A stretch of DNA of 64,000 nucleotides from a virus: positions 1-64,000 of IMG/VR virus record IMGVR_UViG_3300042502_001732; one strand, 5' to 3'. The translations under genes and the position numbers were made by a program. Of the stretch, positions 45,250 to 62,581 are shown one piece after another; positions within the stretch are counted from its first letter, which is position 1, and every line of letters begins with the position of its first letter. The notes under the pieces were generated by a model. That model saw nothing but the letters and a program-made list of their open reading frames with translations, made no database searches and was not told the origin of the DNA.

Positions 45250-46446
45250 GTGATTAAATATTCTTATCATCGTGAGCAGTTAGATTTATTGATGCTTTTT
45301 ACATCAGCATTCGATGATACGTTTGTATATAGATATGATTTCAATACCAAAACGCCAGAATCTAAAATTCAAGTTAGATATATTCATGGTCCAAAACAAC
45401 GAGTAATCCATGACATAGTAACAAAAGAGAAAAATCTCACATTACCAGTGGTTTCAATAGAACAAACTGGATTATCGAGAGATCCAGATAGAGTAGTTCA
45501 CAAACATCAAAATATCTATAGACCATTATTAGGAAATGTTTCAAAAGTTGGTAAAATTCCAATGCCTATACCTGTAACTATGGATGTCAAAGTATCTATA
45601 ATTGCAAAATATAAAGAAGATATTGATCAAATTATTCAAAATTTTGCAACCGTTTGCAATCCCTATTTTGTTGTTTCTTGGAAAATTCCAGAAGAATTTG
45701 GATTAGATTTTACTGATGAATTGAGAGTTCAAATCGAATGGGCTGGAAATATTTCATATACAACTCCAACAACATTAGGAATAGATGACAAATATAGAAT
45801 AAGTGCTGATACAACTTTCACTATCAAAGGTTGGCTTTTTCCATCTTTACAAAATCCAGAAGCTCCCATTTATGTTGTCAATACTAAATTTATAAATCAA
45901 AATTTAGCATCAAGAGTAACAGGATACGACGATTATCCATCGTTATCTGCGTCATATGTTGAATCGGATACTGTTATGGTATCGGCATATCCAGAATTTA
46001 CTAATTTTTATTATTCTGTATCTGGTGATATAATACCCTTATTAGCACCTGCAAGATTTAATTATACAGTAAGAAATAATTTCTTGATATTAGGAAAGAG
46101 ATTTGGGTATAATAATACTTGGTATTTGAGTTCTTCAAAACAGGAGTTTTTATTAGACTTTGTAGAAATTAAAACTGCCAAGTTCCCAATCATATCAGCT
46201 TATAAAATTCCTGAGAATTTAATAACTACTTATACAGATAATAATGTAACTATTTCAATTCCAGAAAACTTTTTATCAGGATCATCTGGAGATTTTACTA
46301 TAGTAACTGCCAACAGTGCTGGATGGACATCTTCCAAATATAAATTTTCTATAGATGACATTAATAATAAAAATATGTATATTCAACCAGATTTGATTAG
46401 TACATATTATCAACCAAACAGTGCAAATACATATATTAGACCTTAA
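45250..46446 (+). CDS. 15: Tail terminator/sheath stabiliser (gp15-like) with C-terminal extension
   Basis: F...FDD, GPKQ, LTLP..S, RDPDR, PVT, QIIQ...PYF, FTIKGWLF; extra ~150-aa beta-rich domain. Confidence 0.8.
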   Translation: MIKYSYHREQLDLLMLFTSAFDDTFVYRYDFNTKTPESKIQVRYIHGPKQRVIHDIVTKEKNLTLPVVSIEQTGLSRDPDRVVHKHQNIYRPLLGNVSKVGKIPMPIPVTMDVKVSIIAKYKEDIDQIIQNFATVCNPYFVVSWKIPEEFGLDFTDELRVQIEWAGNISYTTPTTLGIDDKYRISADTTFTIKGWLFPSLQNPEAPIYVVNTKFINQNLASRVTGYDDYPSLSASYVESDTVMVSAYPEFTNFYYSVSGDIIPLLAPARFNYTVRNNFLILGKRFGYNNTWYLSSSKQEFLLDFVEIKTAKFPIISAYKIPENLITTYTDNNVTISIPENFLSGSSGDFTIVTANSAGWTSSKYKFSIDDINNKNMYIQPDLISTYYQPNSANTYIRP

Positions 46447-46454
46447 ATATAATT

Positions 46455-46913
46455 ATGTCAGATATTGTAGTAAGCCAACATATTGATGATCTTTTAAGAA
46501 GTTCAAGCGCTTCTGGATCTAGAAATGTATTAAATGTTCCTAGTGTATCGGAAGTTCCAACTATTCAAAGTTTCAACGCACTTTCTGAATCTGTAGCTAG
46601 AATAGATGGATCTCTTATAAACGTTCTTAGTCTCAGTGGAGATACTTATACATTACAATTATCTAATTTAGGAGCTTACATAAGAAAATTTCATAGTTCT
46701 CCTCATACTATTATCATACCTAATTCATCTGATGTTTCGTTTCAGGTTGGTAGTACGTTTGTAATTAGAAACACAAGTTCAAGCAGCTTAACCATATCAA
46801 GCGGACCTACAGTATCATTAAGTTATTTTGCAGACTTGAGTGCTAATATATTAGATCAATATGCTTCTGCTCAAATAGTTTGTGTTGGAACAGATAACTG
46901 GGATATAATTTAA
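46455..46913 (+). CDS. Putative virion structural protein (fibre-associated domain)
   Basis: TYTL...G, TIIIP...F.VGS, QYASA....GTDNW; late promoter. Confidence 0.55.
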   Translation: MSDIVVSQHIDDLLRSSSASGSRNVLNVPSVSEVPTIQSFNALSESVARIDGSLINVLSLSGDTYTLQLSNLGAYIRKFHSSPHTIIIPNSSDVSFQVGSTFVIRNTSSSSLTISSGPTVSLSYFADLSANILDQYASAQIVCVGTDNWDII

Positions 46914-46914
46914 T

Positions 46915-49884
46915 ATGAGAATATCAACAGCTTCTAGATACAAGTTTTTAAAAGATTATAGAATAGGAGTTCCTGAATTATTGTCAGAAACATCCTATAG
47001 TGGTAATATTATTTTTAATGAAAGTGATTTAAGAAAAAGCATTGGATGGTTAGCTAATACCGCTGTAAGACAAGTCGGTACCACTTTCACTGGATTGTTT
47101 TTTCTCGATAGACAGGGTGATGCTGTATCAATTAATACTGAGGGTGATGTTGTTGCTGTAGGAGCTTCAAATGGTAGAACAACAGATATCGGATATACCA
47201 GAATATTTAGACTTACTTCTTATTCTGGTAATGGGTCTTGGGGTCAAATAGGGCAAACTATTGATGGTGAGGCATCGGGAGATTTCAGTGGTTTTTCTGT
47301 TTCTTTAAACAATATTGGTGATAGAGTAGCTATAGGAGCAAGGGGGAATGATAATATTGGTGGAGTTGATAGTGGACATGTGAGAGTATATCAATTAAGT
47401 ACATTTGGTAGTAATAATTCCTGGGTTCGGTTGGGTCAAGATATCGACGGGGAAGCTGCGGCAGATCAATTTGGATCTACAATAGATTTGAATGGTGAAG
47501 GGAATATATTAGCAACGGGTACACCTTTTAATGATAGTTATGGTTCTAGTTCTGGTCGCGTAAAAATATATCAATTAAGTTCATTCGATGTTAATAATTC
47601 TTGGGTGCAAATTGGACAAAATATAGACGGTGAAAGTGGAGATAGTGCAGGAACAAACGTGTCCTTAAATAACGCAGGTGATAGAATAGCTGTATCCTTC
47701 CCTTACCGCGCAGTTAACGGCTTTAATAATTCTGGAATAGTTAAGGTTTTTAATTTAAGCGCATATAGTGGCAATTATACTTGGGTTCAAGTAGGGCAAG
47801 ATATAACAGGTATTGCAGAAGAGTATGGATACTTCGGTATCGGTGGTATATCAATGAATTATAGTGGTGATAGGATAGCTATAGGTTCTAATCAAAGTGG
47901 TAATGGATTAGTAAGTGTTTATGAATTAAGTGGTAATAATTGGTTACAGGTAGGCCAGTTTATAACTGGGCAGCAGACTAATGAGAGTTTTGGTAATGAA
48001 ATATCTATTAATGATGCTGGAGATAAAATAGCAGTGACTTCAAATCTTTATGTATCTGATAGTGGATATCAAAGTTGCTTGAGATTATATCAATTAAGTT
48101 CTTACAACAATTTAAACACTTGGGTGCAAGAAGGATTAACTTTAGATTCTAACACAAATAACGGTGAATTTAATAAAATTAAGATGAATGGTTCTGGTGA
48201 TACATTTATTGTAGGTGGTCCATTTGCAACTTCACGTGGTAATGCGAAAGTATTTAAAACCTATTCGCAAAAAACAGATAATTTATATACAGGATTTAAT
48301 GATGATCTTATACAGGCTTCTAGACCAAGATGGAAATATCCAAACAATTTAAATATATATGGAGGTTGGTATAATAATTATACAAATAGCTTTTTAACAG
48401 ACCTGCAAAATATAACATTTTCTGCTCCTACAAGTTCGAATTTTTTTACGGAAATACCAGCGTTAACAGCTATAAATCAAGCTCAGGGTATAAAGTGGGT
48501 AGAAATAGCAACTAAAAAAAATACTTCAATTACATTATCTTCAACTCCATCTTCAGCAATATATTTTAAAAGAAATGGATTTAATATTAGATTAAAAACA
48601 ACACCTCAAGTATCATGGATTTATAATTCGAATTTATATAAAGATACTGCACTAGGTTTTTCTCTTGGTGTTGAATACGCGCCAGATATAGTAGTCAATA
48701 ATATTTTTTGTAATCTAGCTCCATTAAACACCACCTTTTCTGCCTTTAGCGCAAATTATGATAACTGGTTTGTAAATTTTTCTTCGGAAATTCAACCCAT
48801 TTCTGGTGTTGATAGATGGCTTCTAAACAATACAAATTACATTAATTCAAAAACCATAACTCTAACAGCCAACAACCAATATATACGCTATCAACCACTA
48901 GGCATCTCTTATAAAAACTTATCATCTTTATCTGCATCTAGTGAATTTAATGTATATGTAAATTCAAATATATTAGATTTTGGTTTAAAATCAACATCAT
49001 CGCTACGATCAAGACTTACAAGCGTCACTCCATTAACATCTACAAGAAATGTATTTACAACTTACAACCGAACAACTAATACCTTTATAAGAAATCCAAA
49101 TCTTTGGTGTGCTGATTTAACAGATCAATTAACAGCTCTTGTTGTTCAAAAATTGGGAGAAGCTGTATTTTCATACGGCGGTACTCTAATAACACCAAGA
49201 CACTTATTATATGTTCAACATGCTTTTCCTAGAACTGACAGAGTAAGATTTGTAAGATCAGACAATACTGTTATTTCAGCAGCGCCATTAGCATCTTCTG
49301 ATAGTACAACGTATAAAAATGATTTTCCAATAGCATCGCTCTCCTCAGTAGATAGTCTATATACAGATATTGGTATTGTTGTACTTGATAGAGATGTATC
49401 TTTATCTGGTATTCATGTAATGCCGATAGCAGCGATTACTCCAACAGAAAGAGAAATATTAAATCAACAATTTATACCTACACTTTTGTGTACGCAAGCT
49501 CCAGGTAGATCTACTGGGTCATCAAATCCAAATGCGGTTAGTGCGAGCGATATTCAGATGACTATAAGTTCAACTAACTTTTTAAATATGACCACAGCAT
49601 GGGAATCTCAAAGCGCAAACCCGTTTTTAAATTGGGATGTGATGGGAGCTGGAGGATCAGGGTATACTATTTGGGACGGTGACAGTGGCAATTCTCATTT
49701 ATTATTCTGTAATGATAAACTTTATGTTTATAGCATTACTTTTTCCTTTACAGGTAGAGGTGCTATTGTTTCAGCACTTTCGGGAGCTATAAACTACTTA
49801 ATAGACAAAGCAGATCAATTAGCGGGTATTACTACTAATATGAAACCAACATATTACACTATAGAGCAGATTGCGAATAGATGA
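46915..49884 (+). CDS. Putative virion protein: FG-GAP-like beta-propeller plus trypsin-like serine protease domain
   Basis: Repeats W.Q.GQ.IDGE...FG.SVSLN..GD..A.G; C-terminal GTLITPRH...H, TDIGIV, GDSG. Confidence 0.75.
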   Translation: MRISTASRYKFLKDYRIGVPELLSETSYSGNIIFNESDLRKSIGWLANTAVRQVGTTFTGLFFLDRQGDAVSINTEGDVVAVGASNGRTTDIGYTRIFRLTSYSGNGSWGQIGQTIDGEASGDFSGFSVSLNNIGDRVAIGARGNDNIGGVDSGHVRVYQLSTFGSNNSWVRLGQDIDGEAAADQFGSTIDLNGEGNILATGTPFNDSYGSSSGRVKIYQLSSFDVNNSWVQIGQNIDGESGDSAGTNVSLNNAGDRIAVSFPYRAVNGFNNSGIVKVFNLSAYSGNYTWVQVGQDITGIAEEYGYFGIGGISMNYSGDRIAIGSNQSGNGLVSVYELSGNNWLQVGQFITGQQTNESFGNEISINDAGDKIAVTSNLYVSDSGYQSCLRLYQLSSYNNLNTWVQEGLTLDSNTNNGEFNKIKMNGSGDTFIVGGPFATSRGNAKVFKTYSQKTDNLYTGFNDDLIQASRPRWKYPNNLNIYGGWYNNYTNSFLTDLQNITFSAPTSSNFFTEIPALTAINQAQGIKWVEIATKKNTSITLSSTPSSAIYFKRNGFNIRLKTTPQVSWIYNSNLYKDTALGFSLGVEYAPDIVVNNIFCNLAPLNTTFSAFSANYDNWFVNFSSEIQPISGVDRWLLNNTNYINSKTITLTANNQYIRYQPLGISYKNLSSLSASSEFNVYVNSNILDFGLKSTSSLRSRLTSVTPLTSTRNVFTTYNRTTNTFIRNPNLWCADLTDQLTALVVQKLGEAVFSYGGTLITPRHLLYVQHAFPRTDRVRFVRSDNTVISAAPLASSDSTTYKNDFPIASLSSVDSLYTDIGIVVLDRDVSLSGIHVMPIAAITPTEREILNQQFIPTLLCTQAPGRSTGSSNPNAVSASDIQMTISSTNFLNMTTAWESQSANPFLNWDVMGAGGSGYTIWDGDSGNSHLLFCNDKLYVYSITFSFTGRGAIVSALSGAINYLIDKADQLAGITTNMKPTYYTIEQIANR

Positions 49885-49934
49885 TAAACTATTTTTATTA
49901 GTATAATTCGGAATTGATATTTAGTAATTTAGCC

Positions 49935-49940: not shown

Positions 49941-49946
49941 AGATAT

Positions 49947-51779
49947 ATGGCAGGGTCTGACAGTTCCACAACAGCAAATTCAAATAGAAATTTTGTATCC
50001 AGAGATGGGAGAAGTGCAACTTTTGACAGATCCATGACTTCTTATTTGAATTCAAGAAGTACAAATTCTTATGATATTTTAGATTCTGACGAAAATAAAA
50101 ATACAAAATACAAGTATTTCAAAAAGGTTGGAATGCGAAGAGCGGAAGCAATTTCCAAAAATTCAATAGCATTAAGCAACGATTTTAATAACACTGCATA
50201 TGGAATGATGCATAAAGATTCATCATTCGGTGATGTGATGTATGCAACCGTTTCAGAAGATAAACCAGGAAGATTAAGAGATTATAGATCAATAGCTGCA
50301 TATTCTGAAGTTTCAGATGCATTAGATGAAATTTGCGACGAGTGTGTAAATTATGATGAAAATTCAAATATATTGAAACTTTTATTTGTAAATGATAATT
50401 TAAAGTCTATTGAAAAAGAAAAAATAGCCGACGAATTTGATAAATTTATAGATCATTTTGATTTTAAAAATAAAGGATGGAGATATTTTAGACAATTCTT
50501 AATAGAAGGTGAACTGTATTTTGAAAATATAATCCACGAAGATTATACAAAACAAGGCATTTTAGCTGTTCAAAATTTACCAGCCGATAATATAGATCCT
50601 GTATATGCTAATATACAAAACATGTTGATTAAAGGATTTTTATATAAAAAACCTGTTTTTGATCCAAACGATCCGAAAAAAGTTGAAAGATTTGAATATA
50701 TACCATTTGAAGAAAATCAAATTATATATGTCAACAACGAAGCTTACAATGAAACAAAAGAATTTGTAGTTCCATTTGTTGAAAATTGCAGACGCGCATA
50801 TCGTCAATTATCAATGATTGAAGATAGTGTTGTTATACATAGATTAGTACACGCTCCTCTTCGTTTTATGTTTAATGTGGACGTTGGTAGAATGCCAGTT
50901 CCACAAGCAGAATCATATCTTCGTAAATTACAACAACAATATTGGTCTACAAAAACATTTGATTCTGATCAAAATGATATTGTTAAAAAATATAATCCAC
51001 AGTCAATGTTGGATAGTTATTGGTTTGCAAAACGTCAAGGTCAAGAAGCTACATCAGTTCAAACTTTCGGAGGACAACCAAGCGATGGCAATTTAGATGT
51101 TTTGGATTGGTTCCTTAGAAAGCTTTATCGTTCTTTAAAAGTACCAACAAGTAGATTGAAAGATGATAGCGGATTATCAGACGGTTCTCAAATTTTAAAT
51201 GAAGAATTGAAATTTGCAAAAATGATAGTTCGCCAACAACAAAAATTTGCAGCAGCTATTAAAAAAGGATTTATTACTCACATCAAACTTCGTGGAATGT
51301 TCGACGAATATGATGTCGAAGAACAAAACATCGATATTTCTTTTGTTCCACCTGGAACATTTTTCGAAATGAGAGAAAATCAAAAGAAACAATTGAAAGT
51401 TGAAATGTATGGTAGTGTTATGAATACACAAAATATTTCTGACACTTTTGCAAAGAAAAAATATTTGGGCTGGAGTGATAAAGATGTGTTGGCTGATAGA
51501 GAATTTAGACGATCTGATGCTGCATTTACTTGGGAACTTCAACAAATTTCATCAGCTGGACCAAATTGGAAAGCACAATTATTACAAGGTGCTGCAGAAC
51601 CAGCGGCGGCTGGAGAAGCTCCAGAAATGGGCGGCGGTATTGGTGGTGGAATGCCTCCTGATTTTGGAGGAGGTCCAGCGGCAATTGGTGGAGAGACAGG
51701 AGCACCACCTCCTCAAGAAGAACCATTTGGAGGAGAAACTAATACAGAACCACCACCTGGAGAAGGAACCCCAGCTTAA
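49947..51779 (+). CDS. 20: Portal protein (gp20)
   Basis: YR.IA...EV..A.DEI, IEDSVVIHRL..AP..MFNVDVG, MLDSYWF, LYRSLKVP.SRL, ELKF. Confidence 0.95.
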   Translation: MAGSDSSTTANSNRNFVSRDGRSATFDRSMTSYLNSRSTNSYDILDSDENKNTKYKYFKKVGMRRAEAISKNSIALSNDFNNTAYGMMHKDSSFGDVMYATVSEDKPGRLRDYRSIAAYSEVSDALDEICDECVNYDENSNILKLLFVNDNLKSIEKEKIADEFDKFIDHFDFKNKGWRYFRQFLIEGELYFENIIHEDYTKQGILAVQNLPADNIDPVYANIQNMLIKGFLYKKPVFDPNDPKKVERFEYIPFEENQIIYVNNEAYNETKEFVVPFVENCRRAYRQLSMIEDSVVIHRLVHAPLRFMFNVDVGRMPVPQAESYLRKLQQQYWSTKTFDSDQNDIVKKYNPQSMLDSYWFAKRQGQEATSVQTFGGQPSDGNLDVLDWFLRKLYRSLKVPTSRLKDDSGLSDGSQILNEELKFAKMIVRQQQKFAAAIKKGFITHIKLRGMFDEYDVEEQNIDISFVPPGTFFEMRENQKKQLKVEMYGSVMNTQNISDTFAKKKYLGWSDKDVLADREFRRSDAAFTWELQQISSAGPNWKAQLLQGAAEPAAAGEAPEMGGGIGGGMPPDFGGGPAAIGGETGAPPPQEEPFGGETNTEPPPGEGTPA

Positions 51780-52072
51780 CTACAAAATTTTACACAATTG
51801 AATGAGGATGAATAATAAAATCCAGTTCCATTATTTGATGCGAAATTAAATCCTGGTGTGCTGGCATCAACACATTGATAAAAATAATACGTTGTTCCAT
51901 TGTTTGAAGATACATGATTATATCTGGTTGATTGTCCCCATAAAATAAAATCATTGGCTGAGAGATAATAATATCTGGAACCATTATTTGCTTGTAAATC
52001 GATACCTATTTGACTAAGAACTCCGCAAGATATCGGAAAATAGAAAGTTCCATTATTATCGGTTATTGCCAC
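51776..52072 (-). CDS. Small Cys/Tyr-rich protein with four NNG(T/S)xxx repeats
   Basis: NNGTFYF, NNGSRYY, NNGTTYY, NNGTGFY; GTG start 5 nt after TAAATA. Confidence 0.6.
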   Translation of the reverse strand: MAITDNNGTFYFPISCGVLSQIGIDLQANNGSRYYYLSANDFILWGQSTRYNHVSSNNGTTYYFYQCVDASTPGFNFASNNGTGFYYSSSFNCVKFCS

Positions 52073-52109: not shown

Positions 52110-53252
52110 ATGTCTCAATTGTGCCAAATAAGTCCGATATCAGCATTCATGTCAACGAATTTAAATTCAAAGATAGAATGTTTTCAGCAATTGGGAGAGC
52201 GTATCATGAGAATGTTGGGACATCCAATTATAAATGTAGAAATTCATCCTGATCAATTATATGATTCTATTTCAATGGCAGTTGAGTTTTTTACAAAGTA
52301 TGCTGGTTACACTCAAGAATATTTGATATTTGATAGTAATTTATACGAATCAAACAAAGGTATAAGGCTTGATCATTTATTTACAGTTGCAAATACTGGA
52401 TTTACATTGAGTCAAAAATTACAACAACCAAATAGATCAAATCCAGATTTTACTGTTGATATTCCAGAAGCATTGTATGTATCATTATCTTCAATTCCAC
52501 AATCTTATTTTTCAGCGAGTAGTGCATTGAGTTCTGCAGTTGCATCAGATGGAATTTACGAAATGCAAATAATTAACTCTGAAATATATAATCAATTTAT
52601 ATCATACAATCCTCAGCTGAGTGCGCATTTTAAAATGTCTCCTCAAAGAAAGATATCTTCTCAATGTCAAAACATAGAAAATGCAACTCAATACAATAAC
52701 ATGTTTGATTATGATGTGATGGATTATAGAAAAGTAATGTCTGTTACTGATTTTGAAGAAGGAAGCAATCAAGGTATAAATACATTATTCACCTTAGAAC
52801 AAACACTTGCACAACAAACATATTTTAGTTATGCTATGGGTAATTATGGTTTTGATTTACTTTCATGGCATACTATGAAAGATTGGATTGAAACAAGAGA
52901 AAAGCTTTTAGCAATTCGTAGAGATATACATTTTGATGCAAGAACACAATATCTAAAATTCTATCCGCAACCAAAAAATACAAGATTCTATGGTGTAATT
53001 TCTTGTTATGTTGAAAGACCAATAAGAGACATAATCAAAGAAAAATGGGTATTGGAATACAGTGTAGCATTAGCTAAAGTAATGTGGGGAAGAATCCTTA
53101 CAAAAATAACAGGAGTTTCATTACTTGGTGGTGGAAATTTCAACGGTGATACTATTCTCGCAGAAGGTATCAGAGAAAAAGAAGCATTGGAAACAATGTT
53201 GGTCGAAGGTGGATACGGAGATTTTGCACCTGTCTCGCTACTAGTTGGATAA
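52110..53252 (+). CDS. 13: Neck protein (gp13-like) with central insertion
   Basis: RMLGHPIINVEI...Q, WV..Y..ALAK..WG..LTK..GV.L.GG..FNG. Confidence 0.85.
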   Translation: MSQLCQISPISAFMSTNLNSKIECFQQLGERIMRMLGHPIINVEIHPDQLYDSISMAVEFFTKYAGYTQEYLIFDSNLYESNKGIRLDHLFTVANTGFTLSQKLQQPNRSNPDFTVDIPEALYVSLSSIPQSYFSASSALSSAVASDGIYEMQIINSEIYNQFISYNPQLSAHFKMSPQRKISSQCQNIENATQYNNMFDYDVMDYRKVMSVTDFEEGSNQGINTLFTLEQTLAQQTYFSYAMGNYGFDLLSWHTMKDWIETREKLLAIRRDIHFDARTQYLKFYPQPKNTRFYGVISCYVERPIRDIIKEKWVLEYSVALAKVMWGRILTKITGVSLLGGGNFNGDTILAEGIREKEALETMLVEGGYGDFAPVSLLVG

Positions 53253-53253
53253 T

Positions 53254-53706
53254 ATGCTTCCTTTAAAAAGAGACAAAAGATTCCGTCAAGGAATTTACAA
53301 ACCAAAAAATCCTAAAAAATTTATTGGAACTACTGCAATTTATCGTAGTGGTTTAGAATGTAAGTTTTTTATGTTTTGTGACAATAATAGTAATGTTATA
53401 AAATGGGGAAGTGAAAATATAATAATACCTTACGTTTCAAAAATTGATGGAAAGTGGCACAAGTATTATGTGGATAATTATGTTGAAATAATGGAAGGAA
53501 CTAAATTAGTGAAATATTTAGTGGAAATAAAACCACACAAACAGACTTTAAAACCAGAAGCGAAGCAGGGAAAACGAAAAAGTAGTTTGCTGTATGAACA
53601 AACACAATGGATCATAAATCACGAAGGTAAATGGCCAGCAGCTAGAAAATTTTGTGAAAGTAAAGGATGGAAGTTCCTTATTTTAACAGAGAAGGAATTG
53701 AATTAA
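53254..53706 (+). CDS. 4: Head completion nuclease (gp4, TnsA-like)
   Basis: G.YKPKNP.K, YRSGLE, W.SE...IPY, Y.VD, EIKP..QT, KW.AA, F.ILTE. Confidence 0.9.
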   Translation: MLPLKRDKRFRQGIYKPKNPKKFIGTTAIYRSGLECKFFMFCDNNSNVIKWGSENIIIPYVSKIDGKWHKYYVDNYVEIMEGTKLVKYLVEIKPHKQTLKPEAKQGKRKSSLLYEQTQWIINHEGKWPAARKFCESKGWKFLILTEKELN

Positions 53707-53730: not shown

Positions 53731-55719
53731 ATGAGGATTTTTACGGAAAATGTCAATTTTATCTCCACATCGGGGGATAAAAATATTCTTCAAATAGAAA
53801 ATTATGAAGAAGTATTTTTTGATGTTTATGAAATATCAATAAATGGTAAAAAATTCATTTCTGAAAAAATAGGAGAATATGAAAAAAAACCTATTGTAAA
53901 AATACCCGTGGAAATCGACGGGATTAAAAAAGAATACCCATTTATATTAAACGAAGGTAAATTTCAAATAGTGTTCAATGAACAAAATGAATTGATTCAA
54001 GAATCTGTAGAAGAAAATATTCCAGCGATAACTGAAGAATTTGATGAGGTTGAAGAATATTCCAAAGAATCGTTTGAAAAAGAACTCATAGATATTCAAG
54101 AAAAGAAAAATAAAATTCTGGAATATATAGAAAATGTTAAAAAAACTGCAAAACAGCAAACTGATGAATATAATAAAAACCAGTTAAAAATTCTAGAACA
54201 GCAAAAAGAAGAAAATAAAAAAGAATTAAAATCTTTATTGGAATCTTCTAAGCAATCATGGTTTGAAGAATTTGTCGATGTATCAGATAAAATTAAAAAA
54301 GAATTATTTGATAGATTGAATATTAATAATTCTGAAATTTATGAATCAATTGATTTGAAATTAGAAATCATTTCTGATGATTTTAAGAAATTAATTGAAG
54401 AAGATTTTTCAAATACCGAAAAAATATTTGAAAATAAAATAAAAGAATTAATAACAGAAATTTATAATAATCAGGTTATCAAAGTCATCAACGATGGTAT
54501 TGATAAAATTTCACAACAATCAGAAGTTTCTTTTGAAAATATAAAAAATGATTTTGATTTGGCTCTTTCTGAAAAAGCAACCAGCGTTGATTTAAAAAAT
54601 GTCGAAGATAAGTTAGAAACTGAAATTTTATCAGTACAAAAAGAATCAATTGAATTACACGATTTAATTTCAAAAAGCGTATCATCAAATAAAAAATCAA
54701 TAACATATATTGAAAATAAAATTGATGAAACTCAAAAAGAATTAAAAGAGAACATCATAAAAATAATTGATGAAAAGATCGAAGAAAACGAAGATAGCAT
54801 AACAACATATTACAATGAAAAACTTGACGTTGTTGAAAATAAACTTATAGATCTTTCAGACGAAAACAGACAGTATTTCATTGGATTGATAAACGAAAGC
54901 AGAGATAATCTCTTAAAAGAAATCAAATCCATTAAAGAAAATAAAGCAATAGAATATATTGTTGAAAATAAAAAAACTGGGGAAAAGAAAGAAATTGATA
55001 TTAATTCAATAAAAAGCGATCTCCAGAAAGAAATATCAAATAAAATCTCAAATGAGATAATCTCTCTTAGAAAATATACAGCATATCATGGCGGCGGTGG
55101 AGGTACTGTAGCTCAACAATTTGCAGATGGTGGAACCATGAACGGATCATTGAATATCAATGGTCAAATATTAAGTGGTGGTGTTGATATAGCTACATTA
55201 TTTACAATTGGGGGAACTTCAAATTTCGCAACTTATGATTTTGTAAATAATAATTTTTTAAATTTATCAGGAGGTATAATTACTGGAAGTACACGCTTCA
55301 ACAGTAATGTAACAATTTACGGTAATCTTACCGCTACTGGCACTACAACATTTAACAATACGATATTCTCTGTTACAAGTGCATTAAGTGTTGTTCATAT
55401 AGGTGAGGGTCCAGCAGTGTGGGTAGGTAATAGCGGCCTTGGTGATATAGCTTCTTTCAATGATATAGATACAGGGCTTGAAGTATTACACGTTGGCGGT
55501 AGTAACGGCGCATTCCCCAATGTCGGCGTAAAGACTAGTACACCTAATGTTGATTTTACGGTTAATGGTCAAATTAGCGCTTCCAATACAATTTGGAGTT
55601 CTGGTGGTAATTCTAATAACTGGAATAGTACTTATAGTATGGTAAACGCTTTAAGTGCTACATGGAGTTTAGGTCCTGATGACTCAAATACAATTATAGG
55701 TCTTTCAATCTTTTTATAA
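53731..55719 (+). CDS. Long coiled-coil protein with Gly hinge and C-terminal fibre-like beta domain
   Basis: ~400-aa E/K/I heptads, GGGGG, then GGTMNG.L, LSGG.ITG, VGV.TSTP. Confidence 0.65.
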   Translation: MRIFTENVNFISTSGDKNILQIENYEEVFFDVYEISINGKKFISEKIGEYEKKPIVKIPVEIDGIKKEYPFILNEGKFQIVFNEQNELIQESVEENIPAITEEFDEVEEYSKESFEKELIDIQEKKNKILEYIENVKKTAKQQTDEYNKNQLKILEQQKEENKKELKSLLESSKQSWFEEFVDVSDKIKKELFDRLNINNSEIYESIDLKLEIISDDFKKLIEEDFSNTEKIFENKIKELITEIYNNQVIKVINDGIDKISQQSEVSFENIKNDFDLALSEKATSVDLKNVEDKLETEILSVQKESIELHDLISKSVSSNKKSITYIENKIDETQKELKENIIKIIDEKIEENEDSITTYYNEKLDVVENKLIDLSDENRQYFIGLINESRDNLLKEIKSIKENKAIEYIVENKKTGEKKEIDINSIKSDLQKEISNKISNEIISLRKYTAYHGGGGGTVAQQFADGGTMNGSLNINGQILSGGVDIATLFTIGGTSNFATYDFVNNNFLNLSGGIITGSTRFNSNVTIYGNLTATGTTTFNNTIFSVTSALSVVHIGEGPAVWVGNSGLGDIASFNDIDTGLEVLHVGGSNGAFPNVGVKTSTPNVDFTVNGQISASNTIWSSGGNSNNWNSTYSMVNALSATWSLGPDDSNTIIGLSIFL

Positions 55720-55736: not shown

Positions 55737-56102
55737 ATGGCAACATATACAAAGCAATTATTATCACAAAGCACAAATGGCAAGTCTATTGTTATAGCTG
55801 CCAGTGGTGCTAACACTACAACAATACACACAACACAAGCATCATCAAGTGTAGTTGATGAGGTGTGGTTATACGCTACAAACTCTACAACATCAGATAT
55901 AATGTTTAATTTATTATATGGAGGTACAGATTTTTCAACTGATATTTTATTTGAAGGTGTTATTGAGGCTTATGCTGGAAATACATTAATCTGCCCTGGT
56001 TTAATTTTACAAGGAGATGGAACTACGGGATCTTCTATATATGGAAATGCTAGTGTATTGAGTGGCATTAATGTTTTTGGCTATGTAAATAGGATAAGTT
56101 AA
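55737..56102 (+). CDS. Putative structural protein
   Basis: DEVWLYA.N...GYVNRI; late promoter. Confidence 0.55.
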   Translation: MATYTKQLLSQSTNGKSIVIAASGANTTTIHTTQASSSVVDEVWLYATNSTTSDIMFNLLYGGTDFSTDILFEGVIEAYAGNTLICPGLILQGDGTTGSSIYGNASVLSGINVFGYVNRIS

Positions 56103-56103: not shown

Positions 56104-58773
56104 ATGAGTATTCGTTACGGAAATAAAGTTGGACCGTTAGTCTCACGTAAGTCTTCTTTTTTTAAAAAGGATAGATTTGATCGACTGCGTATAAAACAAC
56201 CAACAGCAGCAGCAACTCCAGCCACACCGTCTCCATGGGTTCGTCCTGCTGATTGGTTGACAATGCCGACTATAATATCTTCAGAGCAAAAAATAGCTTT
56301 GTTGATGCCAGTGTTTCCGCAACAATCTAACTTTCTCGCTTTTACAATATCTGGAGCATATACAGTTGATTGGGGTGATGGTGTAACAGAAAATGTTGCA
56401 TCTGGTGTTAAAGCTCAACATGAATACTCTTATACCGACCCAGATTTAAATGCCACCGTTGCAAGTGATGGTTATAAAATGGCAGTTGTAGTCATTACTC
56501 CTCAAGCTGGTCAAAATATAACAAGTGTAAACTTTAACCAAAAGTATGCACAAGCAGGATCTACATTTCCCGATTCATCTCCTATATTAGAAATAGCTTT
56601 ATCTTGCCCAAGTTTAACAGGTTTAACTCTTGGTAATACAACCGCTTCTTTGGCTTTTTGTAAAAATTTAGTTAGTTTCACTGGAGTCAATATAGGATTA
56701 TTAACTGACTTATCTAGTTCATTTGCAAATTTAGTTTCATTAAAAAATGTATCTTTTAATGATCTTACTAATATTACTAATATGAGTAGTATGTTTCGGA
56801 GTTGCTCTTCTCTTACAACAGTACCGCTTTTTAATACAGAGAATGTTATTAATATGACTAGTATGTTTCAGAGTTGCACTGCTCTTACAAGCGTACCTCT
56901 GTTTAATACATCAGCTGTTACTAGTATGAGTGGTATGTTTAGTAGTTGCACTGCTCTTACAAGCGTACCTCTGTTTAATACATCAGCTGTTACTAGTATG
57001 AGTAGTATGTTTAATGGCTGCACTACTCTTACAACTGTACCGCTTTTTAATACAGGGGCCGTTACTAATATGGGTAGTATGTTTAATAGTTGTACTACTC
57101 TTACAACTGTACCGCTTTTTAATACAGGGGCCGTTACTAATATGGGTAGTATGTTTGCCTCTTGTTCCCGTCTTCAGACTGTACCATTATTTAACACGCA
57201 AAATGTTACTACTATGGGAGGTGCTTTTCCACCAAATGGAATGTTTTCTGGCTGTAGATCACTTATAACTGTACCACTATTCAATACAGTAGCTGTTACT
57301 GATATGGGTGGTATGTTTTTTAGTTGCTTTTCTCTTACAAGTGTACCGCTTTTTAATACAGTAGCTGTTACTAGGATGTCTTTTATGTTTGCTAGTTGTT
57401 CCTCACTTACAAGTGTACCACTATTCAATACAGCAGCTGTACAATTCATAAATAATATGTTTGCTAGTTGTTCCTCACTTACAACTGTACCACTATTCAA
57501 TACAGCAGCTGTTACTAATATGAATAGTATGTTTAATAGTTGCACTACTCTTACAACCGTACCGTTATTCAATACATCAGCTGCTACTGATATGGGTAGT
57601 ATGTTTTCTAGTTGCACTACTCTTACAACCGTACCGTTATTCAATACAGTAGCTGTTACTAGTATGAGTGGTATGTTTAGTAGTTGCACTGCTCTTACAA
57701 GCGTACCGTTATTCAATACAGTAGCTGTTACTAGTATGAGTAGTATGTTTAGTAGTTGCACTGCTCTTACAAGCGTACCTCTGTTTAATACATCAGCCGT
57801 ACAATTGATGAATAGTATGTTTAGTGGTTGCTCTTCTCTTACAAGTGTACCGTTATTCAATACAGCAGCTGTTACTAATATGAATAGTATGTTTTCTAAT
57901 TGCACTACTCTTACAAGTGTACCTCTGTTTAATACAGCAGCTGTTATTGATATGTCTAGTATGTTTAATGGTTGTACTTCTCTTACAACTGTACCACTGT
58001 TTAATACAGCAGCTGTTACTAGTATGAGTAATATGTTTAACGGTTGTACTTCTCTTACAACTGTACCGTTATTAATTTCAGGTGCTGGAACAAATACAGG
58101 AAAGTTTGGTGGTATTTTTGCAAGTTGTATATCACTTACAAGAGCAGCATTGAATGGTTCTGAATATTCAATAAGTTATAGTGGTTGTAAATTATCAAAA
58201 GAAGAATTAGAATCTATATTCAATTATCTAGACACAATAGGTGCTGCTTCTCAAACAATAACAGTATCAAATAATTGGGGAGCGCCGACACCTGTAACTC
58301 TTACAGGAACTACAACTGTTGGTAGCACAACAATAAGCATGGCAAACACCACTGGTATTGCTGTAGGTATGCAAATTACAGGAACAGGATCACCTCTTAC
58401 ATCAACTAGAGCAGTAACATTTACCGATGCAGGTGATTTAGTCAACCTTGCAAGTCATGGATTAAGTAATGGAGATGAAGTTTCTTTTGCAACTAGAGTA
58501 ACAACGACTGGTATTGTTATTAATACGATTTATTATGTAGTTAATGCTACGGCAGGTACATTTCAAGTAGCAGCAACTCTAGGTGGTCCAGCATTAGCAT
58601 TAACGACAAACGGTTCTGGAACCTTACGCTATCGTACACAGGTTGTATCAATTAACCCCAACGTAAGCATCACAGTATCACGACAAATGGCTGCGGGGGG
58701 TGCAAATAGTTTAACATTTAGACAATTAAGAACTGGAACAGCCCTATTAAAAGGCTGGGCAGTAACAGCATAA
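56104..58773 (+). CDS. BspA/DUF285-like leucine-rich-repeat surface (receptor-binding-like) protein
   Basis: W.RP.DW N-terminus, VDWGDG (PKD-like), ~18 x 22-aa M..MF..C..LT.VPLFNT..V repeats, HGL..GD.V C-terminal domain. Confidence 0.8.
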   Translation: MSIRYGNKVGPLVSRKSSFFKKDRFDRLRIKQPTAAATPATPSPWVRPADWLTMPTIISSEQKIALLMPVFPQQSNFLAFTISGAYTVDWGDGVTENVASGVKAQHEYSYTDPDLNATVASDGYKMAVVVITPQAGQNITSVNFNQKYAQAGSTFPDSSPILEIALSCPSLTGLTLGNTTASLAFCKNLVSFTGVNIGLLTDLSSSFANLVSLKNVSFNDLTNITNMSSMFRSCSSLTTVPLFNTENVINMTSMFQSCTALTSVPLFNTSAVTSMSGMFSSCTALTSVPLFNTSAVTSMSSMFNGCTTLTTVPLFNTGAVTNMGSMFNSCTTLTTVPLFNTGAVTNMGSMFASCSRLQTVPLFNTQNVTTMGGAFPPNGMFSGCRSLITVPLFNTVAVTDMGGMFFSCFSLTSVPLFNTVAVTRMSFMFASCSSLTSVPLFNTAAVQFINNMFASCSSLTTVPLFNTAAVTNMNSMFNSCTTLTTVPLFNTSAATDMGSMFSSCTTLTTVPLFNTVAVTSMSGMFSSCTALTSVPLFNTVAVTSMSSMFSSCTALTSVPLFNTSAVQLMNSMFSGCSSLTSVPLFNTAAVTNMNSMFSNCTTLTSVPLFNTAAVIDMSSMFNGCTSLTTVPLFNTAAVTSMSNMFNGCTSLTTVPLLISGAGTNTGKFGGIFASCISLTRAALNGSEYSISYSGCKLSKEELESIFNYLDTIGAASQTITVSNNWGAPTPVTLTGTTTVGSTTISMANTTGIAVGMQITGTGSPLTSTRAVTFTDAGDLVNLASHGLSNGDEVSFATRVTTTGIVINTIYYVVNATAGTFQVAATLGGPALALTTNGSGTLRYRTQVVSINPNVSITVSRQMAAGGANSLTFRQLRTGTALLKGWAVTA
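56782..58070 (+). repeat. 66-bp intragenic tandem repeats, about 18 units
   Basis: Recurring ...tcttacaa..gtacc..t.tt.aatac...gctgttact; several adjacent near-identical pairs. Confidence 0.9.
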
Positions 58774-58777
58774 TTTT

Positions 58778-58969: not shown

Positions 58970-59014
58970 ATTAATAAAGATATTAATAATATTAGATTTT
59001 TTATAATAAAAAGA

Positions 59015-59020
59015 TAAATA
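59015..59020 (+). promoter_or_regulatory. Late promoter core TAAATA (gp21)
   Basis: 6 nt before ATG 59027. Confidence 0.65.
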
Positions 59021-59026
59021 ATTTAT

Positions 59027-59692
59027 ATGTTAAAATTAAGATTGATTGCGGAGAACCCAGACCTCTTAGAAAGATTTGAAATTGTTGAAGAACAAGACAA
59101 TTTAAAAAAAGGCAGCTCTTTATATGTAAAAGGTCCATTCATAGGATGTAATCAAGTTAATAAAAATCGTCGCATGTATAATTTAGATGAAACACGCGAA
59201 GAAGTTAATCGTTATATCAGTGAAATGGTAACTCCTGGCAGAGCTATGGGAGAACTCAATCATCCATCAAGTGCTGAAGTTAATCTTGAAAGAGCATGTC
59301 ATTTAGTCACTGAACTTTATGAAAGCGACAATGCTTTTTTCGGCAAAGCTAAAGTTTTATCTACACCAATGGGTCAAATTTTAAGAGCATTGATAAATGA
59401 TGGTGTTAAAGTTGGAATGTCCACAAGAGCATTGGGATCATTGCAAGAAGAATCATCATACAATCTTGTAAAAAACATGAAGCTCGTAGCTATTGATGCA
59501 GTAGCAGATCCATCATTTCCAAAAGCATTTGTTAATGGTATTTTAGAATCAAAACAATGGGTAGTTTCTGATAATGGCAAGTATGAAGAAATTTATGAAA
59601 ATTTTGAAAAATCAATAGGTAAATTACCTAAACATGATATGGGTTCTTATCTTAAAGATCAAATTTTAAAATTTATTAATTCACTTAGTTAA
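59027..59692 (+). CDS. 21: Prohead protease (gp21)
   Basis: NKNRRMY, GELNHP, GMSTRALG, DAVADPS. Confidence 0.95.
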   Translation: MLKLRLIAENPDLLERFEIVEEQDNLKKGSSLYVKGPFIGCNQVNKNRRMYNLDETREEVNRYISEMVTPGRAMGELNHPSSAEVNLERACHLVTELYESDNAFFGKAKVLSTPMGQILRALINDGVKVGMSTRALGSLQEESSYNLVKNMKLVAIDAVADPSFPKAFVNGILESKQWVVSDNGKYEEIYENFEKSIGKLPKHDMGSYLKDQILKFINSLS

Positions 59693-59700
59693 ATACTGTT

Positions 59701-60186
59701 ATGCCATTAAAAAAAGGATCATCAGATAAAACAATTTCCGCTAATATAGCAACGGAAATGAAATCTTATAAAAAGACTGGAAAGATCGGAACATCTAAAC
59801 CAAAGTCAGACAAAGCTGCTCAAAAGCAAGCAGTTGCTATTGCATACTCCAAAGCTGGTAAAAGCAAAAAGAAAAAAGAAAAACCAGAAGAAGATGCTGA
59901 ATCCGTTGTCAAGCAAATGAAAAAAAATAACGGAAAGATGTCATTTAAAGGTCCAAAAACAAAAGAACGTAAACATTCTGCACCTCCTGTTAAAGTACAT
60001 AAAACCAAGAAAGGTAAAGGATCTTACAACAGAAATCAAGAATTGCACGAAAATAATGACATTACTGCATTTATTAATTGTATTTTTGAAAAAAATTACA
60101 ACGCTGCGAATAAATATTTAACAGACGTTCTTAATTCAAAGATACAACAACGTATTGAGAATGAACTATCAACTCCCTTATTCTAA
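59701..60186 (+). CDS. Basic prohead-core-like protein: MPLKKG...QAVAIA module, ArfA-like KKGKGSYxR motif, gp67/68-like C-terminal helix
   Basis: Between gp21 and gp22; three compositionally distinct segments separated by EEDAE and LHE. Confidence 0.6.
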   Translation: MPLKKGSSDKTISANIATEMKSYKKTGKIGTSKPKSDKAAQKQAVAIAYSKAGKSKKKKEKPEEDAESVVKQMKKNNGKMSFKGPKTKERKHSAPPVKVHKTKKGKGSYNRNQELHENNDITAFINCIFEKNYNAANKYLTDVLNSKIQQRIENELSTPLF

Positions 60187-60189
60187 TTT

Positions 60190-61065
60190 ATGAAAATAAC
60201 AGATCTATTAAACGAAGAAGTCGTAAGCGTAATCGGTGAAGAATCACTAGTTGCAATTCAAGAAGCTTTTGAAAAGAAAGTTGAATTAACAACCGAAGCA
60301 GCGCTTATATCACAAGACGAAGTTTATGCTGAAAAACTTGATCAACTTATTCAAGCAATTGATAAAGATCATAGTACAAAGATGAAGAGAGTTGTAGAAG
60401 CTGTTGATGCTGACAGAACTCAAAAACTTCTTAAAGTTGTCAACAAATACGAAAGAGCGTTGAACGAAGATTCAGCTACTTTCAAAAAGCAAATGGTAGG
60501 TGCAGTTAGTGCATATCTTGATGAGTTTTTAGAAGAATCAATTTCAAAAGAAGATTTAGCAACTGCTGTTAAAAACAAAAGCGCATATAATGTTTTAGAA
60601 AAACTTCGCGGTGTTTTAGCTGTTGATTCAGTATTAATGAAAGAGTCTGTTCAAGAAGCTGTTCTTGACGGCAAGACTCAAATTGATAATCTTCAATCTG
60701 AAAATTCAGAATTGAAAAAGCAACTTTCATCATTGCAAGAAAGCTTCAACAATATTAGAGTCAATGCTTTAATTGAAGAGAAAATTTCCAATATGGAAAC
60801 TGAGAAAAAGTCTTTCATAAGAAAGACTCTCAAAGACAAATCATTCGATTTCGTTAATGAAAATTTTGATTATGTTTCTCGTCTTTTTGATAAAAAAGAA
60901 AAAGAAAAAATCAAATCAATCACCGAAGAAGCAAAACAAAAGAAAATGGATGTAGATTTCATTCCAGAATATCAGAAAGTTGTTTCAGAAAGTGTAAATA
61001 ATACAACCGATGATTCATACAACAGCTATGTTGAAGAATTATCAAAAGTTTTCGGTAAGAGATAA
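60190..61065 (+). CDS. 22: Prohead scaffolding protein (gp22)
   Basis: Acidic coiled coil, AFE..V, V..YLD, directly upstream of gp23. Confidence 0.85.
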   Translation: MKITDLLNEEVVSVIGEESLVAIQEAFEKKVELTTEAALISQDEVYAEKLDQLIQAIDKDHSTKMKRVVEAVDADRTQKLLKVVNKYERALNEDSATFKKQMVGAVSAYLDEFLEESISKEDLATAVKNKSAYNVLEKLRGVLAVDSVLMKESVQEAVLDGKTQIDNLQSENSELKKQLSSLQESFNNIRVNALIEEKISNMETEKKSFIRKTLKDKSFDFVNENFDYVSRLFDKKEKEKIKSITEEAKQKKMDVDFIPEYQKVVSESVNNTTDDSYNSYVEELSKVFGKR

Positions 61066-61129
61066 TTTTCACCAAGAACCATGAGGTCTTATGACCTGAA
61101 TATAGAAACAGAAAATATACGTAAAACAT

Positions 61130-62581
61130 ATGAAACCTAATTCCCCAGTTAACGAAAGCAGAACTGACGCTCTTGTAAAGAAGTGGTCAAAGGTTCTGGA
61201 TTATAGCAGCAATGCTATCCCAGCAATCCGCGACGAGCACACTTACAGAACTACAGCTATGCTTCTCGAAAACCAAGAACAATGGTGCATCCAAGAAGCG
61301 AATACTGGTACTGGTATCTTTGGCGCTACTGGCGCTCAAGGCCCATCAACCATTCCTAACACTGACGGTTATGCCGCTGGTGATAGTCGCCTTCCAAAGA
61401 TTCTCATTCCTATGATCCGCCGTACTTTTCCTGAGTTGATTTCCAACGAAATTGTTGGTGTTCAGCCAATGGGTGGTCCAGTTGGACTTGCTTTCGCCCT
61501 TCGTTATGCCTATCAGCAAGAGACTCTCGGTGCTGATGGTGTCGATGGTCGTGCATTTGATACTGCTAACCGCGCTAATGGCACTGCTTACCTTTCTGGT
61601 GCAGACGGCCTGAACGCTACCGAACTTGGTTATCAACTTCTTGACACACGATTCACAGGTACTTCTTCAAGTGCTCTCTCTGGTAACGGAGAGTGGACAT
61701 TTGCAGATGCAGACCGTGGTGTTGCAGAACTTCTTTCAAACTACGAACTGACAGGTAAAATCCCTCAGATCGAGATGAAGTTCGAAAAGACCGCTGTCGA
61801 AGCTGGAACTCGCAGACTTGCTACTCGCTGGTCTGTTGAGCTTGAGCAAGACCTTAAGAACATGCAAGGTATCGATATCGACGGTGAACTCACTAATGCT
61901 ATGTCATATGAGATTCAAGCCGAAATCGACCGTGAGGTTGTGATTCGTATGATTCAGTCCGCCATGAATGGTGGATTCGGGGCTGGTTACTCCTTCTGGA
62001 GCCCAGTAAGTTCAGACGGTCGTTGGACTGCAGAGCGTAATATCACTTTCTATCAAAAGCTACTCATCGAAGCTGGTCGTATGGCCGCTCGTAACCGTAG
62101 AGGCGCTGCTAACTTTGTTATCGCAACTCCTCGCGTTTGCACCATCCTTGAAATGCTTCCTGACTTCAAGACATTTGAAATCACTGGAAACGTTACAACC
62201 GCTGGTGTCGGAGTATCCAAGGTAGGAACTGTAGGAAGCCGCTTCACAGTATATCGTGATACACGTACCGAAGTACAAAATCAAACTCTCTATTCACCGA
62301 ACTACTATCGCAATAGTCCAAATTCTGGACAAGGCGTTGAGTATGCTCTTCTTGGATATAAGGGTTCTGAGTACTACGACACTGGTATCATCTATTGTCC
62401 TTACATTCCGATCATGGTTCAAAGAACCATCGGACCAAATGATTTCGCTCCTCGCGTTGGTCTCATGACCCGTTATGGAATCGTTAATAATATCTTTGGT
62501 GCGAATCTTTATTACCATCTGATCATTGTTAAAGGTCTTGGTGCAGCATTTACTCCTGGTACAGTTTCCACATACTTATAA
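61130..62581 (+). CDS. 23: Major capsid protein (gp23)
   Basis: KW..VL, LLENQ, RRTFPELI...IVGVQPM.GP.G, ELEQDL, EIDRE, YCPY, RYG. Confidence 0.97.
   Translation: MKPNSPVNESRTDALVKKWSKVLDYSSNAIPAIRDEHTYRTTAMLLENQEQWCIQEANTGTGIFGATGAQGPSTIPNTDGYAAGDSRLPKILIPMIRRTFPELISNEIVGVQPMGGPVGLAFALRYAYQQETLGADGVDGRAFDTANRANGTAYLSGADGLNATELGYQLLDTRFTGTSSSALSGNGEWTFADADRGVAELLSNYELTGKIPQIEMKFEKTAVEAGTRRLATRWSVELEQDLKNMQGIDIDGELTNAMSYEIQAEIDREVVIRMIQSAMNGGFGAGYSFWSPVSSDGRWTAERNITFYQKLLIEAGRMAARNRRGAANFVIATPRVCTILEMLPDFKTFEITGNVTTAGVGVSKVGTVGSRFTVYRDTRTEVQNQTLYSPNYYRNSPNSGQGVEYALLGYKGSEYYDTGIIYCPYIPIMVQRTIGPNDFAPRVGLMTRYGIVNNIFGANLYYHLIIVKGLGAAFTPGTVSTYL

Follow-up and report, generated by a model that had tools for sequence, protein, structure and literature searches.

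Does a three-residue sequence that keeps returning in the virion proteins of a phage mark those proteins for modification? The question is raised by a 64-kb window that forms the first part of the 143,932-bp IMG/VR record IMGVR_UViG_3300042502_001732 (hereafter G000). This is an uncultured freshwater T4-like myovirus with a CheckV completeness of 69% and a GC content of ~29%, whose gp23 has its nearest catalogued relatives in the major capsid proteins of cyanophages, at only 34% identity. An earlier, sequence-only reading had pointed to the tripeptide L-[S/T]-[A/G/S] in proteins encoded between positions 45250 and 62581, concentrated in exposed or inserted parts, and had proposed it as an acceptor sequon for the glycosyltransferases (GTs) of the phage. 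We find that an excess of L-S-[AGS], written LS[AGS] below, is a real property of the outer virion proteins of this clade, and that a Ser O-glycosylation sequon is its best single explanation, to which we would give about an even chance.

A Leu-Ser-small tripeptide is over-represented in the structural region

All of the LS and LT sites listed by the sequence-only reading are present, residue for residue and nucleotide for nucleotide, and the lack of LS[AGS] that it had remarked in the DNA polymerase holds (none in 16415-19003, and none in either helicase candidate). Each protein was compared with 3,000 shuffles of its own sequence, either global or local (within 20 amino acids, aa). The 13 structural-region proteins contain 27 LS[AGS], compared with 10.1 expected from global and 10.8 from 20-aa local shuffling (p<3e-4), and the 11 that remain when two repeat proteins are left out contain 16, compared with 5.05 expected; no shuffle of either set attained the observed count. 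The other, non-structural proteins of the window carry 14 compared with 12.8 expected.

The two repeat proteins require separate treatment. The gene at 46915..49884 (+) encodes a 989-aa protein with six FG-GAP-like propeller blades, in which the pattern (v/i)(y/f)xL(S/T)x occurs at the same position of each of the six blades (LTS at residue 100, LST at 161, LSS at 221, LSA at 281, LSG at 338 and LSS at 394), with a spacing of 56-61 aa. These copies descend from one repeat and hence are not independent events. Six more LS[AGS] lie in the non-repeat C-terminal half (residues 541, 669, 672, 809, 830 and 955), and the protein as a whole has 10 compared with 2.2 expected. The 889-aa DUF285/BspA-type protein encoded at 56104-58773 (+; Pfam DUF285) consists of 24-aa repeats (sCtsLTsVPLF) of the BspA-type leucine-rich kind, which are the source of most L-T-[ST], followed by a Thr/Ser-rich C-terminal part. 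Many of the copies counted under the original L[ST][AGS] definition therefore come from the LT[ST] of the 56104 repeat and from the propeller and are not independent, but the excess in non-repeat proteins stands.

Since the motif had originally been picked by eye, we scanned 10,263 three-position motifs, composed of single residues and 11 residue classes, in the 11 non-repeat proteins. The top rank went to L-S-[AG] (12 vs 2.7 expected, p 2.6e-5) and the third to L-S-[AGS], although 4% of 400 shuffled sets attained an equally small minimum p (family-wise p ~0.04), so that the signal from the window alone is real but borderline after correction. Over all open reading frames (ORFs) of G000 the top motifs are I-T-A (41 vs 11.3) and T-T-T (51 vs 18.1), which probably stem from Thr-rich repeat or fibre proteins such as those encoded by ORF 1-2163 or 141042-143144. 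Codon usage at 25 sites is varied, with five Leu codons and Ser drawn from both the AGY and TCN families; the motif is therefore one of protein sequence, with no nucleotide motif behind it, and a cause at the DNA level was ruled out. A lipobox (L-[AS]-[GA]-C) was likewise ruled out, as no Cys follows any site in the window.

The excess recurs in unrelated virion proteins of complete relatives

Two complete relatives served as hold-out genomes, G001 (207 kb, terminal repeats, GC 39%) and G004 (230 kb, GC 35%). In G001, L-S-[AGS] ranks first of 27,672 motifs over all 333 ORFs (119 vs 63.1, p 2.4e-10) and first again in the 18 ORFs of >=500 aa (41 vs 12.0, p 4.4e-11). In the large ORFs of G004 it is similarly enriched (97 vs 37.4, p 3.5e-16), at rank 144, below a group of motifs led by the W-D-[AS] type. 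The strongest motifs there are W-D-[AS], A-D-W and D-W-D (W-D-S, for example, occurs 68 times vs 4.9 expected), apparently originating from an Ala-Asp-Trp-Asp-Ser repeat. Restricting the count to ORFs of >=300 aa that lack a BLAST homologue in G000 gives 49 vs 15.0 in G001 and 99 vs 40.4 in G004.

For the decisive comparison the motif was fixed in advance and applied to 67 such ORFs (>=300 aa, 35,558 aa in all, no BLAST homologue in G000), leaving out two repeat-rich ORFs. LS[AGS] occurs 124 times compared with 47.9 expected (p 4e-20). At position 1, Leu is enriched 2.59x, Val 1.37x and Ile 0.90x; at position 2, Ser is enriched 2.59x and Thr 1.05x; at position 3 the ratios are 3.48x for Ala, 3.01x for Gly, 1.82x for Thr and 1.73x for Ser. 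Permuted orders of the same residues give 0.88-1.52x. The residues flanking the motif show mild preferences only and the sequence contexts are diverse. Two consequences follow for the original proposal. The inclusion of Thr at the central position is not borne out (L-T-[AGS] 1.05x in these independent data), and Ser/Leu composition, which it had named as a possible explanation, fails, since the shuffles, the motif scan and the permuted orders all speak against it.

The LS-richest ORFs of G001 and G004 adjoin gp6 and gp25 in the baseplate-fibre module and none has a BLAST homologue in G000. Most of them have no PHROG name, and their assignment as baseplate or fibre proteins comes from synteny with gp6/gp25. 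The excess thus recurs in virion proteins of relatives that are unrelated to those in which it was discovered. Because the pre-specified test succeeded on independent proteins, this settles that the LS[AGS] excess is a real property of the outer virion proteins of the clade. An inserted domain shared between carriers was considered as the source and rejected: a hidden Markov model (HMM) of the gp15 extension described below matches no protein of the genome other than gp15 itself, and common descent of a domain is therefore not the cause.

Sites lie in lineage-specific segments of conserved virion proteins

Three proteins with recognisable T4 counterparts, the tail terminator gp15 (45250..46446, +; Pfam T4-gp15_tss over residues 4-218), the neck protein gp13 (52110..53252, +; PHROG head-tail adaptor Ad2) and the major capsid protein gp23 (61130..62581, +; Pfam Gp23), carry eight sites between them. 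All eight fall in the lineage-specific segments, counted as the gp15 extension, the gp13 insertion and the gp23 I-domain region (362 aa, 0.76 expected, p 1.4e-6), with none in 899 aa of conserved core. The concentration in inserted and extended parts that the earlier reading had described is therefore upheld.

The gp15 sites, at residues 232 (nucleotides, nt, 45943-45951), 293 (46126-46134) and 342 (46273-46281), are all in the Ig-like C-terminal extension (residues ~225-398). An AlphaFold2 (AF2) model of gp15, with a mean predicted local distance difference test (pLDDT) score of 63, matches T4 gp15 in its N-terminal part (4HUH, E 1e-8) and predicts an immunoglobulin (Ig)-like beta sandwich for residues 241-368. 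In this model the first site falls in a disordered linker, the second at the end of strand 290-294 and the third in the loop 338-346. Across 14 homologues with 32-43% identity, S294 is invariant and L232, L293 and L342 are conserved in >=90%; L-S is kept at the three positions, with S, A or G following it, and relatives add sites at non-homologous places in the extension.

In gp13 the insertion spans residues ~95-200 and contains LSS 126 (nt 52485-52493), LSS 140 (52527-52535) and LSA 170 (52617-52625). The insertion is missing from more distant relatives, and within it the LS[SAG] positions are the best-conserved elements, again with S, A or G as the third residue.

In gp23, LSG 155 (nt 61592-61600) lies in a variable loop and LSG 183 (nt 61676-61684) in the block FTGtSSxxLSG. 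Both had been assigned to a variable region, which is correct for site 155 but not for site 183, whose block is conserved in the clade and flanked by variable loops: L183 and G185 are invariant in 36 sequences, and among 79 relatives position 184 is occupied by Ser in 84% and by Thr in 10%. Alignment places both sites in the stretch corresponding to the I-domain linker and I domain of T4 gp23; the block itself is absent from T4 and cyanophage gp23 in this alignment. In the T4 capsid it is the I domain that makes up the protrusions on the surface (PMC9546572). This placement relies on the alignment to T4 gp23 and the published domain description, since the AF2 model of gp23 has a mean pLDDT of 37.

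The sheath protein gp18 carries five sites in G001 and three in G004; the five of G001 lie between residues 129 and 419 of 805, within the middle third to half of the polypeptide, and in T4 gp18 the central region forms the outer sheath domains. The proteins gp20, gp21, gp6, gp25, gp19, gp3 and terminase have 0-1 site each, and the scaffold gp22, like the portal, protease, tube and baseplate-core proteins, has almost none. Exposure of the sites, as predicted from sequence comparison and modelling, is well supported.

Conservation and turnover of sites among relatives

Homologues from IMG/VR relatives extend these observations; for gp23 there are hundreds, of which 80 loci with 57-99% identity were fetched. 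LS[AGS] is in excess in the homologues of gp15 at 30-47% identity (56 vs 7.3 expected), of gp13 at 50-70% (67 vs 16.8), of the 53731 fibre-like protein at <50% (35 vs 12.3) and of gp23 (97 vs 42), and falls short of expectation in all homologues of portal gp20 (2 vs 14), protease gp21 (8 vs 16) and scaffold gp22 (13 vs 26). Summed over the external proteins of relatives, L-S-[AGS] occurs 267 times, compared with 104-140 for five other orders of the same residues; in their internal proteins it is the rarest of the orders. Conservation of the motif Ser is 0.50, compared with 0.27 for the other 146 Ser of the same proteins (Mann-Whitney p 0.009).

The number of distinct alignment sites separates two groups of carriers. 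gp15 has 17 and the fibre protein 22, compared with 4-13 for non-overlapping permuted motifs (9-12 for the fibre alone), and in gp15, the fibre and a small protein encoded after gp23 new sites arise at non-homologous positions. In gp13 and gp23 the distinct sites do not exceed those of permuted motifs and the excess is due to a few conserved sites. The small protein (125 aa, genome positions 64289-64666, +) follows gp23 and a homing endonuclease gene, a position kept in many relatives. Of all carriers it has the highest density of LS[AGS], with four sites in G000 and 92 vs 13.9 expected in 26 homologues. Its N terminus has a conserved xTFxTxxLSA and its C terminus RRKxLLGY, and an accessory or decorating role on the capsid is possible.

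Three T4-like phages outside the clade show neither the excess nor homologues of the glycosyltransferases queried

LS[AGS] is not in excess in the structural proteins of T4 (11 vs 12.5) or in a cyanophage structural set (4 vs 5.5). Whole-genome ratios are 0.99 for T4, 1.00 for the Synechococcus phage S-MbCM100 and 1.18 for the Pelagibacter phage HTVC008M, and for proteins of >=500 aa they are 1.42, 1.04 and 1.25, respectively. The excess is thus absent from these T4-like phages outside the clade, and an LS[AGS] bias is not a general feature of fibre-rich, beta-rich T4-like virion proteins. The large proteins of HTVC008M show a very strong class motif of their own, [GS]-[AGS]-[NQST] (p 3e-22). 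Sequons of other types do not account for the pattern: N-X-[ST] is not enriched in the structural sets of G000, G001 and G004 (ratios 1.01-1.05, no different from T4), Asp-Ser-small falls below expectation (0.52-0.74x) and, at position 1, no residue other than Leu is enriched.

G000 encodes at least 14 GT-type genes. A glycan-synthesis island at 30893..41964 (+) contains four GT2-type genes (one with a GT7C-like match), two GT11 genes, and GT17, DUF5672 and DUF3431 genes, together with two S-adenosylmethionine (SAM) methyltransferases, a DegT-type aminotransferase and an NAD epimerase/dehydratase. Further GTs are encoded at 2177, 11915 and 19035 and, beyond the window, at 73949. For 22 proteins, from the glycan island and other GT genes, no membrane span is predicted, and no homologue of any of the 22, used as queries, was found in T4, S-MbCM100 or HTVC008M.

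Three of these genes stand out as candidates for an initiating enzyme. The GT-B type glycosyltransferase of 400 aa encoded in the replication module (19035..20237, -; weak Pfam Glyco_trans_1_4, PHROG glycosyltransferase) is the best-conserved GT of the clade, with 46-68% identity in 4/4 complete relatives; a phmmer search of all PDB chains gave no relevant match, the T4 DNA glucosyltransferases included. The GT2 gene 30893-31714 (+) is also present in 4/4 complete relatives (40-57% identity), and in G001 and G004 it keeps beside it a kinase-like neighbour, the nucleoside-kinase-like P-loop protein 30159-30893. The third, a GT2-family gene in the tail-fibre neighbourhood (2177..3106, +; Pfam GT2), has a 68%-identical homologue in G001 (166101-166940), directly beside the ORFs that are richest in LS[AGS] there; the window's gene product has no match in the PDB by sequence. 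GT17 is common to G001 and G004, and a protein atlas search with the GTs returned only viral "GT group 1" clusters.

The product of 11915-12577 (-), which the sequence-only reading had taken for gp45 and listed among scattered carriers of the motif, instead matches a GT2-like Pfam family (Glyco_tranf_2_5, E 3e-10) and contains no LS[AGS] site. Homologues of this GT2-like protein are 57% identical in G001 and 36% in G004.

Glycosylation of phage DNA was also considered. Glycan hypermodification of phage DNA has been described (Pyle et al. 2024, via PMC12619734), and with T4-type DNA glucosylation the clade shares a T4-like phage with several soluble GTs, one of which (19035) is in the replication module. 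However, PF00303 and PF00145 are absent from G000-G004, and no ThyA-type hydroxymethylase or C5 methyltransferase was found in the four complete clade genomes, so that, as far as these enzyme families show, T4-type glycosylation of hydroxymethylated DNA lacks its acceptor pathway; 19035, moreover, has no sequence match to the solved T4 enzymes. DNA modification would not in any case explain a peptide motif on virion proteins.

What might read the motif?

From these comparisons L-S-[A/G>S] would be a short linear motif that is placed and kept on the solvent-facing, lineage-specific parts of the virion proteins of the clade. Its probable carriers are the I-domain region of the capsid protein, the insertion in the neck protein gp13, the Ig-like extension of gp15, the outer domains of the sheath, the periphery of the baseplate, the fibres and the small post-gp23 protein. 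The excess is specific for order and residue, replicates in unrelated proteins and is conserved above its surroundings, as is characteristic of a short linear motif read by an enzyme. Because it is found on outer proteins of many folds and its sites both persist and turn over, we consider that the motif is read by something rather than being part of one fold. We propose that a soluble protein O-glycosyltransferase encoded by the phage would use the motif Ser as its acceptor, acting in the cytoplasm on newly made virion proteins. The initiating enzyme might be the GT-B 19035-20237, the GT2 30893-31714 or the fibre-module GT2 2177-3106. A glycan coat would then be built up from the first sugar by the other GTs (GT2, GT11, GT17, GT7C-like) together with the two methyltransferases and the amino/deoxy-sugar enzymes encoded in the island (30.9-42 kb). 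We infer from sequence patterns that an enzyme reads the motif, that what it adds is a sugar, which of the GTs may start the chain and what role a coat might have. The more specific proposal, that through the L-S-[A/G] sequon this clade, a widespread one, lays a coat of complex, methylated, rare-sugar glycan over the whole exterior (capsid protrusions, neck, sheath, baseplate and fibres), falls somewhat short of an even chance.

The original claim of an acceptor sequon for the phage GTs is thus supported as regards the enrichment, the location in insertions and the replication, but not as regards Thr, and several points weigh against O-glycosylation as the explanation. The link between GTs and motif is one of co-occurrence only: a relative lacking either was looked for and none was found, all complete relatives and every clade member examined having both. 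The enrichment is moderate (2.5-3.5x) and many proteins have only 1-3 sites; non-structural proteins carry the motif at 1.1-1.6x, with no visible avoidance. Counts within homologous families are phylogenetically non-independent, and exposure is predicted from insertions, the T4 alignment and one medium-confidence model. A strand end or turn would also accommodate Leu followed by small residues, and at some sites, which occupy Ig positions, a small residue is expected on structural grounds. Finally, the acceptors of the soluble GTs could instead be lipid-linked glycans of the host at the membrane face, small molecules or, by an unrecognised route, DNA.

The strand-end point leads to the most serious competing explanation, in which L-S-small is a clade-specific structural element, a strand end or turn where Leu packs inward, Ser caps and the small residue turns, reused across proteins and unread by any enzyme. 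Two of the gp15 sites are indeed at IPT/Ig-like positions where hydrophobic-small-small is usual, the 46915 copies represent one repeated blade position, gp13 and gp23 show no more distinct sites than permuted motifs, and the outer proteins are beta-rich whereas the internal controls are largely helical. However, the beta-rich fibre, baseplate and Ig-bearing proteins of T4, cyanophage and pelagiphage have no excess. Packing should also tolerate Ile or Val and Thr, whereas only Leu and Ser are enriched. The sites occur in linkers, loops and many unrelated contexts and folds, the gp15-extension HMM detects no shared domain elsewhere in the genome, and new sites appear at non-homologous positions in gp15, the fibre and the small post-gp23 protein. 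We therefore regard a purely structural origin as unlikely, at perhaps one chance in five.

A slightly smaller share of probability goes to a reader of another kind, either a different Ser modification (phosphorylation, acylation, or addition of a phospho-sugar or nucleotide) or a docking tag for a chaperone or assembly factor. The statistics that favour a read motif are silent on what reads it, and the P-loop protein 30159-30893 conserved beside GT2 30893 in G001 and G004 would fit such a chemistry, but no link was found between the motif and a protein kinase, an acyltransferase or a dedicated chaperone, glycan-related enzymes form the only large set that is specific to the clade, and a chaperone tag would not be expected to be conserved on surface loops of mature domains. 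That the pattern is an artefact of chance and selection, a motif picked by eye afterwards and inflated by repeats and Ser-rich composition, we consider highly improbable. The family-wise p of merely ~0.04 in the window, the many copies from repeat proteins and the strongly enriched low-complexity class motifs of other phages would favour it; against it, the motif, once fixed, recurs at p 4e-20 in 67 proteins that have no relation to the discovery set, is the best of ~27,000 motifs in the complete relative G001, and is not matched by permuted orders of its own residues.

Gene order and other features of the locus

The remaining carriers of the window lie within the same virion module. Downstream of gp15, 46455..46913 (+) encodes a 152-aa Ser-rich protein with LSG 60 and LSA 128, for which there are weak matches only, to PHROGs of unknown function; the propeller gene 46915 follows, and the portal gene gp20 starts at 49947. 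Between gp20 and gp13 a 98-aa ORF on the opposite strand (51776..52072, -), with LSA 37 (nt 51956-51964), has homologues in four relatives at 48-58% identity. The 662-aa fibre-like protein is encoded at 53731..55719 (+; LSG 481, LSG 512, LSA 641) and a 121-aa virion-module protein with LSG 108 at 55737..56102 (+). After 56104 the gene order is protease gp21, a small protein, scaffold gp22, gp23 and the homing endonuclease.

Three nuclease genes are found inside conserved modules: a TnsA-like endonuclease gene (53245-53706, +) between gp13 and the fibre gene, a GIY-YIG/NUMOD3 endonuclease gene (32285-33040, +) that interrupts the glycosyltransferase island, and the HNH-type homing endonuclease gene (62704-64254, +) directly 3' of gp23. 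Besides gp21, a second protease gene, ClpP/S49-like by PHROG (genome positions 67078-67749, -), adjoins the ribonucleotide reductase genes. A 616-aa protein encoded at 12613-14463 (+), on the strand opposite to the surrounding replication genes, has no Pfam or PHROG match and contains three LS[AGS] vs 1.0 expected; it may be a virion protein encoded outside the structural block.

Relation to known glycosylation systems

The closest precedent is that of mycobacteriophages, whose virions are O-glycosylated by phage-encoded GTs, with glycans at the C-termini of capsid and tail-tube subunits (Freeman et al. 2023, Cell Host Microbe 31:1216, as reported via PMC12619734). Both cases concern a tailed phage with its own GT genes, and the proposed targets here are likewise capsid and tail proteins made in the cytoplasm, where phage particles assemble. 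No internal tripeptide sequon is described for mycobacteriophages in that report, whereas here the candidate is an internal L-S-[AG] on many outer proteins; the GT set of the clade, known from sequence alone, is also much larger and belongs to other families. A C-terminal location of the mycobacteriophage type was not found, as the gp23 sites are at residues 155 and 183 of 483 and the gp19 tube protein of G004 has none. To our knowledge, glycosylation of tailed-phage particles by their own enzymes is established experimentally only for mycobacteriophages, with no defined internal sequon. A paper on HFTV1 was set aside as a precedent since it concerns glycan binding rather than virion glycosylation.

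Chloroviruses and other giant viruses glycosylate their capsids with virus-encoded soluble GTs (reviews PMC5408694 and PMC9614988). The clade would resemble them in having its own GTs and sugar-nucleotide enzymes, Golgi-type families, methylated or rare sugars, no host membrane pathway and non-canonical acceptor motifs. It differs in that N-X-[ST] is not enriched and the candidate acceptor is the Ser of L-S-[AG], on many proteins of a tailed phage; the chlorovirus type belongs to eukaryotic viruses and places mainly N-linked glycans on one major capsid protein. In Bacteroidota the general O-glycosylation sequon is D-[ST]-[AILVMT], and transfer takes place in the periplasm from a lipid-linked glycan. 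This sequon also has three residues, with a hydroxy amino acid at the centre and a small or methyl-bearing residue next, and occurs on many unrelated proteins; there, however, position 1 is Asp and Thr is accepted, whereas here it is Leu, with Ser only, and the GTs are soluble.

If the proposal is true, sequon-directed cytoplasmic O-glycosylation in a tailed phage would be of a kind so far undescribed. The claim is directly testable, and gp15 residues 225-398 and the 125-aa post-gp23 protein would be the best substrates. A three-residue tag and a soluble enzyme could then serve for cytoplasmic O-glycosylation of recombinant proteins. For the phages themselves, it would explain the large glycosyltransferase islands that they carry and would imply that sugar coats are common in environmental T4-like phages, with possible effects in lakes on decay, grazing, aggregation, adsorption and recognition of the host.

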